DNA of 64,000 nucleotides from Longimicrobiales bacterium (GTDB lineage Bacteria; Gemmatimonadota; Gemmatimonadetes; Longimicrobiales; Gaopeijiaceae). Under the pieces are notes generated by a model. The model did no database searches. It worked only from the letters and a program-made list of their open reading frames with translations, and was not told the DNA's origin. The position numbers and the translations under genes were made by a program. This document shows, one piece after another, positions 24,942 to 30,127 of this stretch. The stretch is taken from NCBI GenBank assembly GCA_965197725.1, contig CBDANQ010000059.1, positions 106,005 to 170,004 on the forward strand, in the 5' to 3' direction. The first letter of the stretch is position 1. Every line of letters starts with the position of its first letter.

Positions 24942-25745
24942 GCCGGTAGGCGGGCCGGTTTCCGGTCACCCGGAACTTGAAGTTCTTGTCGGGGCAGACC
25001 TTGGGCAGCGAACTCAGCTTGAGCCGGTAGTTTTCGGGCGCCAGTTCAAGCTCCAGGTGTTCGGGGGTTTTGGGGGGATTCCGCAACCCGAAGCGTAAAG
25101 GGTGATCACAGGGGTGACGGAGGACGTTTTATGGAATACGTAACGTACAGTATATCATAGATTTACAGCTTATATGACGGCGGACTGGGCCGCTATTACT
25201 GTCACAGTTCAACACGCGGTACGCGAGCCCGATGAGGAATCTGCTCATGTGTCGCCTCATGCTGGAGGCGGGTCTCCGCGTCGGGGAGGTCGTGGCGCTC
25301 AGGCCCAAGCATTTGGACATGACGACCTGCCGTTTGCTAGTCAGGAAAGGCAAGGGTGCGAAGGACCGAGTTCTGTGGATTCGTGACGAGTTGCGGGACC
25401 TAATCGGCGAGTGGCTCGGGAGGCGGCCTGAGTCGCTGTGGCTCTTTCCGACCCGAAAGGGAGGGCAGGTCTCCACCCGCTACATGCGCGAGATGGTGAA
25501 GAGGATGGCTCGGCGGGCGCGTGTCGCGGAGTGGGAGCGTCTCGCCCCGCATAGCCTGCGGCACACGTTCGCGACGGATCTCTCCCGAGAGACAACCAAC
25601 CTTAGGCTCGTCCAGAAGGCCCTCGGTCACGCCGACCTGAGCAGCACGATGGTCTATACGCACGTCCACTACGGGGAGCTGGAAGTGGCTCTGAGGAGAG
25701 CATCGTGAGCGCCCCCGAAAACTCGGTCAGCGGCGGCCATTGATA

Positions 25746-26025: not shown

Positions 26026-27520
26026 CAGACCGTGGATAAAGTCCGGTCATCGCTGTTGTGTTAAATCAGGAGGACACGAGGGTTTTTGCAGCGAGGACGG
26101 CGATGGCGGTAGGCAAGCGGCCCGAGGCTCGGCAGGGCGAGATGTTCGTGGTGGCGAGCGAGATTCGGGCCTTGGACAACCCGTTCTACTGGGCCTTGAA
26201 CGAGCTTCTGGCGAAAAGCGGGTTTGACGAGTTCGCGGAAGAGGCATGCCGTGAGTGCTACGCGGACAATCGGGGTCGGCCGGGGATTGCTCCCGGGGTG
26301 TATTTCCGAATGATGATGGTGGGCTACCTGGAAGGGATCGGCTCGGAGCGGGGCATTGCCTGGCGGTGTGGGGACTCGTTGTCGTTGCGTGAGTTTCTGG
26401 GATACGGGTGGGCGAAGAACCCGCCGGAGCATTCGACCCTGTCGAAGACGCGCAAGCGCCTGAGCGTGGAAGCGCACGCGGCGGTGTTCGGGCGGGTGCT
26501 GGAGCTGCTGAAGGGGTCGGGGTTGCTGAGCGGCAAGACGCTGGGCGTCGACTCGACGACGCTGGAGGCGAATGCGGCGATGCGCACGATCGTGCGGCGC
26601 GACGACGGGTTGGGCTACGATGAATGGCTGGAGCAGGTGGCCCGGGCGTCGGGGATCGAGACGCCGACGCGCAAGGATCTGACGACGCTGGACCGGAAGC
26701 GTCCGAAGAAGGGCTCGAACAAGGACTGGGTGCATCCGCACGACCCGGAGGCGCGGATCACGAAGATGAAGGACGGCAGGACGCGCCTGGCGCACAAGTT
26801 GGAGCAGGCGGTCGACATGGAGACCGGTGCGCTTGTGGCGGTGACGGTGCAGACGATGGACGGGGGAGATGTGGCGTCGCTGCCCAACACGCTGGACGAG
26901 GCAGAGCGGCAGCTGGAAGTAGTGCAGGTAGAGCCCGAGGAAGTGGTGGCCGACAAAGGCTACCACTCGAACAAGACCATGACGGGCGTGAAGGAGCGGG
27001 AGCTGCGCAGCTATGTGAGCGAGCCCAACCGCGGGCGCCGGAAATGGAAGAACAACCGGGACGCGCAGACGCCGACCTACGACAACCGCCGCCGGATCCG
27101 CGGCAACCGGGGGATGCGGCTGCTGCGCCAGCGCGGCGAGAAGGTGGAGCGGGGGTTTGCGCACTTGCTTGTGACCGGAGGGCTGCGTCGCGTCCACATA
27201 CGGGGCCAGGAGGAGATTCGAAAACGGATGTTGATCCACGCGGCGGCCTTCAACCTCGGCCTTCTCATGCGCAAGCGGTTCGGGGTTGGAACCCCCCGTG
27301 CGTTACAGGGCCTCGCTACCGTACAAGCTGCGCTCGCAACTCAGGTTACAACCCGCGTCTCGCGCTTTTTCCGCCGTATTCGGCGCTATTTCGCCTTCCT
27401 TGGGCCGAATATCGCCTCGTCAGACCCCAAAACCCGCTTCTTGCACAACAACACAGCCCCCGCGTGTCTGCCTTCTCTCCCACCCATCATCCGCTGGGAA
27501 CCTATTTCTTCCACGGACTG
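26026..27520 (+). mobile_element. IS1182/IS5-like element, copy B1 (transposase ORF 26058-27524)
   Basis: Inverted repeats CAGACCGTGGATAAA / TTTCTTCCACGGACTG; CTAG on both flanks; DUF772-like GRP..P...SER...P.HSTLS and DDE motifs VDST, ADKGY, VER.F. Confidence 0.95.
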
Positions 27521-27772
27521 CTAGGTGCAGCGCTCAGCGACCCGTTCTGCTGCCTCGAAGATAAGGCGCCCCCGGTACGGGGCTGGTTCACTTTCCTAGC
27601 TCGGGATCTTCCGCTCGCCACATTCCAAACACTTATCAGGCCCCCGGAGTCAAGAGCGCGCATGTCCCCCGGCGCGTCGCGGAGCGGCGCGTAATGAAGT
27701 GAGCGTCGGTCGTCGAGTCCTCTGACTTGGTTTCCGTCAACAGGTGCGAGCACTTCCGAGCTCTGCACCAAA

Positions 27773-29229
27773 CACTTATCGAGGTTCAACCGCCGGGTGC
27801 CCTTCGAGGCGAGCTCGAAGGAGCGGCGGAGCAGGAGCCTGCTGTGGGCTCCTACGACCTAGAAATTCATCTGTGCCCTCGTGCCGTCCGACTCCATTCA
27901 AGGTGAGCAGGCTCGGGCCGTGAGGCGCCGGACCAGTTAGCTCCGGGCTCGGGTGAGGGGCAGAGTCCTGAGTTAGACCGCCTTCGATGTGTGGGGAGCG
28001 GGAGGAGGCGTCCAATCAAGCGAGGCGGCTGTCAGGCATCCGGTGCCCGCTCGAGTTAGAAATCGGGGCTCGCGACCTCCCCTCCCCGTCAGGTGCGTGT
28101 ATAGAAGCGTTCGGTGTGGAATGCCTCCCCGTTCTTGAGCATGAAGTAGGTGGCGCGACCGATGCGAGCCGCGAGGATGCTGAGCGCCTTGCCCTTGCCG
28201 TGGCGGCGCGCGAGCCTCTTGAGATGGCCCTGGGCCGCGGACGTTGTCGCGTAGGAAGAGGACGGCAGCCTCGCTGAACGCCCACTTGAGGTGTGCGTTA
28301 CCGATCTTGGCTCCTCCGCTGCCGACCCGCTTGCCTGCACTGCGGTGCTCGGGCTTGGCGAGTCGACAGTAGGAGCTGAAGCGCTGCACTGTGCTGAAGC
28401 GAGCGATGTCGTGGATCTCATAGAGCAGCGTGAGCGCCAGGATCCGACCGATGCCGGGGATGGTTCGGAGCCGCTCCAGCGTGTCGGAGTCGTGGACACG
28501 GGCTTCTTCTTCGACCGTACGCTCGAGTTCTCGGATCACGGGGTCGTAGCGATCGGCCAGGGCGAGGTCCGCCTCAATGGTCCTCTGGATCATGGGATCG
28601 TCGAACGCCTGGGCCAGTCCCTCTCGGTTCTTCTTGTAGAGGAGCTGACCCGGGGGCCGAGGCAGGTTGTACTGATGAAAGGTGTTGCGGACGTGGGCGA
28701 GGAGCTCGCCGCGCTTGCGCACGAAGTAGAGTCGGCGCCGGAGCACATCGCGCGTGGCTCGCATCTGGGGAGGATAGACGTAGGCCACCGGGAACGCACC
28801 ACCACGCAGCAAGACCGCCGTCTTGTGCGAGTCGATGTGGTCGTTCTTGGCCTTGGCCCCGTGGATCGCCTTCATGTAGAGCGCATGGCCGAGCACGAAG
28901 TGGATCTGCTCACGAGCACATAGATCGGCGAGCCAGTACCAGCAGAAGATGCACTCGCTGCCCACCACGAGGTCCAAACGGTAGGGCTCGAGGGCGCGAA
29001 GCAGTGCCTCGCGCTCACAGCGTAGCCTCTTGTGCAGTCGTATCTTGCCCTGGCCGTCCAGAACGCAGAGGTAGAGCGTGCGAGCGTGAAGGTCGATGCC
29101 ACAGTAGTATCGATGCTGGCCGGTGTAGAAGCGCATGGTTCCCCTCCTGGGTTGGATGGATCGAGCGTCGCGCTCTGATCATTCCGTCCTCTCTGTGAGA
29201 GGTCCAGGAGGGGGCCTGCATGAGTATCA
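27773..29229 (-). mobile_element. IS110-family element (DEDD recombinase 28089-29136, 1-nt frameshift at ~28235) with a ~310 nt 3' non-coding end
   Basis: YCGIDLH, ECIFCW, KNDHIDS, TIPGIG, SAG, GNAHLKWAF; no IRs or TSD; shared CA core at both junctions; empty site is a GCACCAAA...TTTGGTGC hairpin. Confidence 0.9.
27775..28088 (-). ncRNA. Candidate IS110 bridge/seek RNA region
   Basis: Long non-coding end downstream of the recombinase; contains TCGCTTG, the reverse complement of the insertion-site flank CAAGCGA. Confidence 0.55.
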
Positions 29230-29282
29230 AGCGATTTGGTGCGCATCTCCACGTGGGCCCCGAAGCCGGACTATCAAAAACA

Positions 29283-29745
29283 TCAGCCAGCCGCTGCCGA
29301 CTCGTTGGGGATGTCGAGGCCGGCCTCACGAAGAAGGTTGAAATACGTGGCGAAGAACGTACGGTCCGTATTTGGCCAAACTCGCTCGAAGAACTCAGGG
29401 GAGAAATCCGGCTGCATCTCTAACAATGTGCTCACTGCCGCCCGCGCTTCTTCGAATCTCCCCTGCCCGGACAACGCCGCGGCCAAATTCGCGTAGGCCC
29501 AAAAGCTGGCTCTCGGGTGATGTGACGCTAGCCGAGCACATTCCTCGGCCTGTTGAAACCGCCCCAACACGCTGAGGACCCCAGCTCGAACGGCCTGGAA
29601 CACCGGAAGATACGGGTCGTGCGGGCTTAGTTGCTCGGCCAACTCAAACTCAGGTACGGCTGCTTCCGGACGGCCCATGAACGCGAGACACAACGCAAGG
29701 CCGTAGTGCGCGAGCGCAAAGCTGGGCTTGGGGTCAGCACCGGTC
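29283..29745 (-). pseudogene. C-terminal TPR remnant (adenylate-cyclase/TolB-TPR type)
   Basis: PSFALAHY, LSPHDP, LAAAL...GRFEEARAAV..LL..QPDFS...LREAGL; no N-terminus. Confidence 0.75.
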
Positions 29746-30127
29746 CATTCTGGTCGGCACTATTTGCGGACTGTGTCCTCCTCCTGATCGTCATTACTTA
29801 TCGTTGTCTCCCGAACTGCTCCGGTCCGCATCCCCCCTCGCCCCGATTCGGAGGACGAAGCCGACCACCAAGCGGAAGTACCGCACAGGTTCGCCCCGGT
29901 CTTTCGCAGGCGCGTCGAGCACTGGGCACCGGCGCACGATCCGCCACCCGTGGTGCGGGTGGACGGCCCTTCCTCCACAAGTGGCCGTGTGACCGGCCTT
30001 CGGCGAGCCCTACAGCCGTCTCGATACCCAGACGACGCGACCTACGACACGGATCTCGTCGGCGGGGCGTTCGTAGCTGTCGTACTCGGCGTTGGCAGAC
30101 TTGAGCACGACTCTGGGTGGAGCGGGA

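Follow-up and report, generated by a model that had tools for sequence, protein, structure and literature searches.

Does an insertion sequence that reads its target through an RNA guide carry a second, separately programmed target loop? The question is raised by a locus in a 64,000-nucleotide (nt) stretch of contig CBDANQ010000059.1 from a Longimicrobiales bacterium (assembly GCA_965197725.1), which was analysed as a whole and is called the window here. An element of the IS110/IS1111 type lies on its minus strand, and the non-coding region downstream of the recombinase gene contains two similarly built units. A preliminary description of this DNA had proposed that unit 1 programs the target and that unit 2 may be a second target loop, in which case the two would form a small guide array. 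All positions below are window positions, and all features of the element are on the minus strand and given in the recombinase sense unless the plus strand is named.

The pattern CTAACT-N25-35-CTTGAWTGG occurred exactly twice on the minus strand of the window (28059-28012 and 27940-27894) and never in 100 dinucleotide shuffles, bearing out the similar build of the two units. Their plus-strand landmarks had also been placed correctly (AGTTAG at 28054-59 and 27935-40, CAAGCGA at 28017-23 and CAAGGTG at 27899-905), and CAAGCGA is indeed the core with the right flank, being identical to 29228-29234. The common design of the units is GAGCC..N-TAAC, hairpin, N-TTG-A.T.GGAC, and both are conserved in IS1111-type elements of a large family; relatives do not keep the third CTAACT, at 27975-70. 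We propose that the region is the gene of a predicted bridge/seek RNA of ~330 nt with three modules, namely a target-binding loop (unit 1), a donor-binding three-way junction and unit 2 as an arm of that junction. Judging from the sequence, the non-coding region presumably gives rise to this RNA.

Target and donor guides of the predicted RNA

Unit 1 (27993..28087) has an outer stem GGGGAGGGGAGG / CCTCCTCCCGCTCCCC, as defined by the family alignment and RNAalifold, and holds two guides. The right-target guide T1 (GATTTCTAAC, 28055..28064) is complementary to the top strand of the core G and right flank, and the left-target guide B1 (GCCTCGCT with the core TG, 28017..28026) has the same sense as the left flank. 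In the proposed RNA, the pairing partner of T1 would be the top strand at the right flank, and that of B1 the bottom strand at the left flank. The equivalent strands of unit 2 are called T2 and B2, and the guides for the element ends are the right-donor guide (RDG) and the left-donor guide (LDG).

Two collection scans found relatives encoded in most candidate stretches (498 of 568 in one, 560 of 602 in the other). From each scan 80 loci were taken, and these 160 loci plus four own copies gave 164 sequences to be scanned, among which the conserved block GTGTTTGGTGCAG was present in 125. Guide segments were pulled out with fuzzy sequence anchors, and the anchored extraction among the 125 yielded T1 from 75, B1 from 79, T2 from 99, B2 from 106, RDG from 97, the right end from 104 and the left end from 103. 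Covariation was evaluated by permutation tests (5000 permutations) on unique guide/partner pairs, after the row of contig C52 and all duplicate guide/flank pairs had been left out. T1 was taken as 10 nt ending in TAAC and scored against G plus the right flank at positions 5-10; B1 was taken as 8 nt up to and including the core TG and scored against the left flank.

Both guides of unit 1 covaried with the flanks of the insertion sites, as expected of a bridge/seek RNA. For T1 and the right flank, 64 unique pairs gave an observed value of 3.56 and a permuted value of 2.97 (z=5.1, 0/5000 permutations), and for B1 and the left flank 59 pairs gave 3.83 and 3.09 (z=6.1, 0/5000; z=7.3 with Watson-Crick pairs only). 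The signal was located at right-flank positions 5-8 for T1 and at left-flank positions -1 to -5 for B1. The insertion sites in the own genome all fit unit 1: the reverse complement of T1, GTTAGAAATC, stands against the right flanks GTTAGGCATC, GTTAGATAGC, GTTAGATGGC and GTTTGGAATG, and B1 (TCGCT-TG) against the left flanks AATCGCT, AAGCGCT, CAGGCT and AGCCCT, with AATCGCT again in contig C32. The site score of unit 1 was 11.24 with own guides and 9.61 with the guides of other elements (n=42). T1 (28064-55) lies 5' of B1 (28026-17), so that the top-strand match precedes the bottom-strand match, which is the order described in the available text for IS1111 seekRNAs (PMC11187229). Unit 1 is thus a programmable target-binding loop, and the claim that its CTAAC and TCGCTTG segments program the target is upheld by their covariation with the right and left flanks across homologues. 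A global scan of RNA columns against DNA columns regained the known guide columns, but was dominated by clade-defining columns at n ~40 and was unusable for discovery.

The core consensus of integron attC sites is GTTRRRY / RYYYAAC. Aligned insertion sites of the family gave the consensus ..GtC.gcTgcA..c.cT-TG-TTAGgc (90 left flanks and 94 right flanks), in which the core G and right flank read GTTAGGC (n=94) and fit GTTRRRY. An inverse 7-mer with at most one mismatch was found 31-170 nt upstream of 17 of 50 sites, compared with 8 of 50 downstream and 5 of 50 upstream when the 7-mer of another element was used. The attC layout R''-L''...L'-R' could be read in many left flanks (for example, those of L152, L170 and L013), with the inverse core 41-158 nt upstream. 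An ungapped search for inverted 22-mer sites gave no signal (12.04 on the left and 11.61 on the right against 12.13 shuffled), the bulges in attC arms having hidden from it the layout that can be followed by eye. The insertion point thus appears to be the first base of R', at the R' end of attC-like sites of integrons (...T-TG-TTAGGC), and the proposal of attC-like targets has gained support from the consensus, the upstream inverse 7-mers and the readable layouts.

The donor guides lie outside both units. RDG (CAGATGAATTTC, 27862..27873) is complementary to the core G and the start of the left end, ATACTCAT, and LDG (GATAAG with the core TG, 27773..27780) has the same sense as the right end of the element. 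Both covaried with the element ends as bridge/seek RNA guides would, the TTTC-ending RDG segment with the left end (n=57, z=6.4, 0/5000) and LDG with the right end (39 unique pairs, z=4.9, 0/5000), with kinship among the relatives inflating these values. At the most variable left-end position (LE 6), the pairing of RDG was 0.82 against 0.40 expected. The last 7 nt of LDG equal the element's own right end in 76 of 101 cases (53 with ATAAGTG, 20 with ATAGGTG and 2 with ATACGTG), and the block CCTCGATAAGTGTTTGGTGCAG around it (27787-27762) is 92-100% identical among the relatives aligned there by BLAST. With T1, B1, RDG and LDG, all four bridge RNA guides are therefore present, and neither donor guide is in unit 2. 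The preliminary description had found no donor loop; both donor guides exist (27873-62 and 27780-73), and one of them had been mistaken for the end of the element.

A third arm in the donor junction

We built a structure alignment from the window and 83 of 99 unique relatives (84 sequences), 16 having been removed by hand as near-duplicates or for odd length. With RNAalifold and pair counting, four helices were paired in 89.8% of cells, against 32-51% when the partners were slid, and both sides had changed in 119 cells, against 45.9 in shuffles (0/500). The closing helix joins a 5' strand (..GGACTCTGC, 27960..27968) to 27766-27758, the latter being part of the TTTGGT linker and 3' strand (GCAGAGCTC, 27758..27772), in which TGTTTGGTGCAG is nearly invariant in the family. 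At its column pair 12:276 both sides were changed in 23 of 84 sequences, and compensated longer extensions of it (among them CATGT/ACATG, GATC/GATC and GACTTG/CAAGTT) were seen in a listing of 51 sequences. The distal arm (27782..27861) consists of the helix (T)AGGT/ACCT around two hairpins; its four AGGT/ACCT pairs were 96.1% paired, and at pair 153:253 both sides were changed in 28 of 84 sequences.

Unit 2 (27876..27959) supplies the remaining two helices, an outer stem CCCTC/GAGGG that was paired in 100% and a second stem CCG..CC / GG.CGG that was paired in 99.8% of the 84 sequences, with compensatory changes at 21:127 in 15 of them; an internal loop and an inner hairpin follow. Since the alignment supports the closing helix, the two stems of unit 2 and the distal helix, the donor domain forms a three-way junction, which 27968-60 and 27766-58 close by long-range pairing. 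From the closing helix it runs through the unit 2 arm, the RDG strand, the distal arm with its two hairpins and the LDG-TG-TTTGGT strand back to the closing helix. In the proposed RNA the single-stranded strands of this module would carry RDG for the left end and LDG for the right end, and unit 2 would be the third junction arm, a copy-like target-loop fold with an almost invariant scaffold.

An RNAalifold run had instead paired the 5' flank of unit 2 with TCAGAG (27725-20), and this pairing is considered less likely, the compensated extensions favouring GCAGAG. A conserved block GAAACCAAGTCAGAG (27720-27734) stands downstream of the closing helix in nearly all relatives, and its CAGAG could compete with GCAGAG for pairing to CTCTG. 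The single-sequence fold of 27745-28092 was uninformative in this GC-rich sequence (z=-1.06, 15 of 100 shuffles as stable), and an Rfam 15 scan of 27000-29800 gave no match up to E 1, with no check on whether bridge RNAs are among the Rfam families.

The loop of unit 2 has two guide-equivalent strands, the 5' strand T2 (CGGAGCTAAC, 27936..27945), in which TAACTGG is at least 90% conserved, and the 3' strand B2 (GCTCACCTTG, 27899..27908). A true second target loop, directed at another attC-type site and making the RNA a guide array of wider target range, would look much like this, as unit 2 has all formal features of unit 1 and its bases sit in an internal loop. The target flanks speak against this: neither T2 and the right flank (n=82, z=1.3, 552/5000 permutations) nor B2 and the left flank (n=76, z=-0.5) covaried, and B2 paired 5/5 with the left flank in 4 of 76 elements against 2.8 expected. 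At the elements' own insertion sites unit 2 scored 9.25/15 with own guides and 9.18 with the guides of other elements (n=52), showing no preference at sites of which those in the own genome all fit unit 1. We also considered that unit 2 reads a second site nearby, for instance the other arm of the attC, and rejected this from the best sites within 250 nt of the insertion on both strands, which scored 11.31 with own and 11.48 with other guides (n=52).

The site predicted from unit 2 was likewise absent. As a 13-mer it had no match with up to one mismatch in the own genome, and as a 16-mer none with up to one mismatch in the own and two complete related genomes; with up to three mismatches, the counts in those three genomes were not above a reversed-pattern control. 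In four relatives with 94-96% protein identity, T2 and B2 are identical though the T1 segments differ, and unit 2 is moreover nested within the donor junction. In a multi-target guide array the variable bases of the second loop would match a real class of insertion sites, and those of unit 2 did not. The small guide array of the preliminary description is thus not borne out, and we consider a second target loop unlikely. No more probable, in our estimate, is a functional third DNA-reading loop, in a bridge RNA with two target-type loops beside the donor junction, by which a single ribonucleoprotein would select one of two attC classes or, in synapsis, keep hold of a third segment of DNA. A role of unit 2 as the donor loop was rejected as well (T2 with the left end, n=61, z=-0.8; B2 with the right end, n=73, z=-1.7), in agreement with the earlier observation that it does not match the donor.

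With moderate confidence, we favour the reading that unit 2 is a recombinase-docking platform on the donor side, a pseudo-target loop rather than a second programmable one. The recombinase would presumably bind this arm, whose conserved TAAC and TTG-A may touch either the protein or the invariant site centre. About half of the invariant columns of the alignment belong to the scaffold of unit 2, which is conserved down to ~56% protein identity. These properties also bear on whether unit 2 might be a decaying duplicate of the target loop that is now functionless. Guide-equivalent bases without a detectable partner and a B2 drift of 0.27 per site would suit such a relic, but its scaffold is among the most conserved non-coding parts, its stems stay paired through compensatory changes and the B2 anchor is found in 106 of 125 elements, which makes decay very unlikely.

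Several observations weigh against the docking platform. In 17 independent close pairs, B2 changed at 0.27 per site, as fast as the true guides T1 and B1, while T2 changed at 0.14 and the whole region at 0.156; fast change of B2 is also what a retargeted guide would show. T2 paired 5/5 with the right flank in 3 of 82 elements (0.8 expected), all of one clade (L020, L028 and L030), as a second target loop would allow, and in L028 and L030 T1, which resembles T2, matches the same flank about as well. Each element is known at one site only, so that rare use of unit 2 would escape the tests. The fuzzy anchors recovered T1 from only 75 and B1 from only 79 of the 125 elements, kinship among the relatives inflates the z-values of the donor guides, and the inner hairpin of unit 2 lies in a poorly aligned stretch where covariation gave no confirmation.

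A further possibility is that unit 2 pairs only by its conserved TAAC and TTG-A with the invariant target centre T-TG-TTA, as an enlarged donor-side 'handshake' that would assist in synapsis, excision or strand exchange. The target centre is indeed complementary to the conserved bases of T2 and B2 (pairing of 0.83-0.99 at right positions 1-4 and 0.87 at left position -1), unit 2 adjoins RDG, and handshake guides are known as dinucleotides in IS621, according to the part of PMC13626964 available. However, the same conserved bases occur in unit 1 and hence perhaps serve protein contacts, four to six base pairs would be weak recognition, and a structural precedent for a third DNA-contacting loop was not found in the literature searched. 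We regard such a handshake as doubtful, and the docking platform remains our preferred reading of unit 2.

Candidate evidence for expression was set aside. The RNA-labelled runs, among 24, contained 0.05-0.19 of the sampled words, and the pieces in them were 90-99% alike; the four runs that were aligned all consist of assembled contigs, which show no starts, ends, strand or level of a transcript. A high summed depth over 27748-27995 in run X15 coincides with family-conserved blocks and is not readable as expression.

Limits, copies and neighbourhood of the element

The IS1111-type element occupies 27630..29229, ~1.6 kb including the 2-nt core at both junctions; the core reads TG in the recombinase sense and CA on the plus strand, and one of the two copies is that of the target. 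These limits are set by the junctions of the copies in the own genome, whose plus-strand sequence is flank-CA-CTTATCAGGCCCCC ... CATGAGTAT-CA-flank. The window is matched from 27625/27628 to 29231-33, with 99.6-99.9% identity, by full copies in contigs C52, C29 and C60, and two partial copies are found besides in contigs C40 and C32. At its true 3' end the element reads ...CCTGATAAG-TG, where the core is the plus-strand CA of 27630-31; the non-coding regions thus measure 459 nt downstream (28088 to 27630) and 93 nt upstream of the gene. The non-coding region of relatives is alignable down to 27628, and ~100 relatives share sequence to the element end. Four independent junction pairs in the own genome (C59, the contig of the window, C52, C29 and C60) have the form flank-TG-IS-TG-flank, as do those of relatives, showing insertion at a 2-nt core without target duplication, as in the IS110/IS1111 family. 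The complete genomes with L010 and L011 have one full copy each and therefore provide no additional insertion sites.

The 3' end had previously been placed at 27775, giving a non-coding end of ~310 nt, which the own-genome copies and relatives extend by another 146 nt. A 13-mer, CCAAACACTTATC, stands both inside the element (27769-81) and at the true junction (27625-37), so the internal ACCAAA-CA (27769-75) repeats the real junction CCAAA-CA-CTTATC at 27625-37. This explains how a wrong end led to a right-looking empty site: the reconstruction was right by coincidence, while the left flank on which it relied, ACCAAA-CA at 27769-75, is internal to the element. What had been taken for the end, at 27775, is the block encoding the guide by which the RNA matches the element's right end.

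This block could instead be an alternative DNA end of a modular element, comparable to ISPpu9/MITEPpu9, in which case 27787-27762 would not encode an RNA guide and 27630-27775 would be a hitch-hiking module. It does resemble a right-end/target junction (GATAAG-TG-TTTGG), contig C52 has the 27628-27775 segment twice in tandem, and ISPpu9 has such modules and tandem copies in the part of PMC12288879 available. Against this, the segment is present once in all 104 relatives with a defined right end, the -35 and subterminal repeat occur at the outer end only, the block stands in a single-stranded strand of a covariation-supported junction opposite RDG, and the own genome has no solo modules. We consider an alternative end extremely unlikely and retain the block as the LDG-encoding part of the RNA gene.

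The copies show several rearrangements. In the C52 copy (C52:19507-19662, equivalent to window 27628-27784), the 146-bp segment from the LDG block to the right end is in tandem duplicate; as the LDG-encoding DNA resembles the junction of right end and target, the recombinase may sometimes use it as a pseudo-site. In relative L049 (4633-4662), the last 29 nt, from the -35 box through the right end, are in tandem and form two successive right ends. C40:20219-20717 and C60:66543 have the same flank beside the IS right end, and the C40 copy breaks off at the equivalent of 28126 with unrelated DNA beyond, so that it is either a second, truncated copy or the product of a split in the assembly. A 152-nt contig of run X1 links the right flank of the window (29228-29330) to ...TTATTGCCCTAA, which is neither an IS end nor the left flank of the window. 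The site obtained from it, GCCCTAA-CA-AGCGATTTGG, fits T1/B1 better than the window's own left flank (TTTGGAATG), which suggests that IS copies have rearranged and that this flank was perhaps not the original one.

The recombinase gene (28089..29136; ATG at 29136, stop at 28089-91) is read in two overlapping frames. It encodes a DEDD (RuvC-like) N-terminal domain (PF01548, E 5.4e-9, 36.4 bits, cut-off 29) and a PF02371 C-terminal domain (E 2.4e-19, 70 bits, cut-off 21.3), as in the IS110/IS1111 family, and the earlier assignment to an IS110/IS1111-type element with a guide RNA downstream of the recombinase gene holds. One extra G in the GGG run at 28232-34 breaks the frame in the window copy; the other own-genome copies (4/4) and one contig of run X1 have GG there, so the extra G marks either a dead copy or a homopolymer error of the assembly.

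The left end (29137..29229) has the core TG, ATACTCATG and a subterminal inverted repeat (plus-strand GGGGGCCTG, 29210-18), with its start aligned across 39 relatives. The right end (27632..27653) has TTGACT at 27653-48 as a candidate -35, the subterminal repeat GGGGGCCTG at 27645-37 and GATAAG, and is kept in 29 aligned relatives. The subterminal inverted repeat CAGGCCCCC, at a distance of 5 nt from the right and 9 nt from the left end, is typical of the IS1111 group, as is the long non-coding region downstream of the gene with a short left end. Across the circle junction, TTGACT and GATACT are separated by 17 nt, counted on the sequence, and would form a putative junction promoter with GATACT as its -10.

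Two other features were noted beside these. A transposase of the IS1182/IS5 type is encoded at 26058-27524 (NCBIfam NF033551 at E 1.2e-54, below its cut-off; Pfam DUF772 and DDE_Tnp_1), and the last ~225 nt of this IS1182-type element (27300-27524) are present in ~50 copies in the genome of 3.0 Mb, which makes its IS load unusually heavy. Immediately upstream of it, 25232-25708 encodes a C-terminal fragment of a tyrosine recombinase, XerA/XerC-like with weaker matches to integron integrase models, all below cut-off.

Relation to known systems

Among the matches listed, the nearest relatives have 94-96% protein identity and are titled Longimicrobiales metagenome-assembled genomes, and the others have 55-77% identity and come from many phyla. 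The nearest plasmid relatives are those of Candidatus Manganitrophus (61%) and of Pseudoalteromonas, Vibrio campbellii and Alteromonas (53-57%). Elements of E. coli and Klebsiella are ~27% identical, and the plasmid relatives found in E. coli, Klebsiella and Pseudomonas span ~27-34%.

The system resembles the IS1111 seekRNA/bridge RNA systems of ISEc11 and ISPa11, as far as the available text of PMC11187229 and PMC11208160 describes them, in its DEDD recombinase, downstream non-coding region, subterminal inverted repeats, 2-nt core without duplication and top-strand match 5' of the bottom-strand match. In many IS1111 orthologues the donor-binding bases lie in a multi-loop, in the part of Durrant et al. 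(PMC11208160) available, and the same holds here. The non-coding region is 459 nt long, whereas that of ISEc11 is given there as bases 1170-1374, and unlike the described IS1111 RNAs, the RNA predicted here has a third, target-loop-like module inside the donor junction. No description of a third loop in a bridge/seek RNA was found in the literature searched, including the text of a 2026 review (PMC13604230); Extended Data Fig. 10c of Durrant and Supplementary Figs 6-7 of Siddiquee may show similar arms. The bridge RNA of IS621 likewise has two DNA-binding loops that are alike, each with two opposite-strand guides around a 2-nt core, but its RNA lies upstream of the gene, its guide order is reversed, its donor loop is a simple internal loop and it has no third loop-like arm. 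ISPpu9/MITEPpu9 also has an internal end-like copy and a tandem duplication of the segment downstream, as in C52, according to the part of PMC12288879 available; the end-like sequence here differs in being a conserved guide in a structured RNA, and the segment is present in every family member.

Like ISKpn4, ISPst6 and ISPa25 of the IS1111-attC group, the element appears to target one end of attC, with a guide that matches the GTTAG region. In Table 1 of PMC13604230, ISKpn4 inserts at AA*CG inside CGGCTTGAACGAATTGTTAG, ~10 nt before GTTAG, whereas insertion here is at T-TG-TTAGGC, the first base of R', ISKpn4 being compared by this description only. Neither the insertion point nor the recombinase lineage is shared with ISKpn4/ISPst6, the enterobacterial plasmid relatives being ~27% identical; from its insertion point, the element therefore belongs to a different lineage.

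Bridge/seek RNAs are being engineered as programmable recombination tools, and those described have two DNA-binding loops. The family found here is widespread in environmental bacteria and has retained a third, target-loop-like module within the donor junction. As a docking platform, unit 2 would reveal the architecture of IS1111-type donor domains and the features of the RNA that the recombinase recognises; as a DNA-reading loop, it would be a natural multi-guide design and set a precedent for RNA-guided recombination that is multiplexed or three-way. The family also appears to be a second lineage that targets attC, and its insertion point at the integrase crossover box is of interest for the ways in which insertion sequences inactivate integron cassette arrays or change their make-up.

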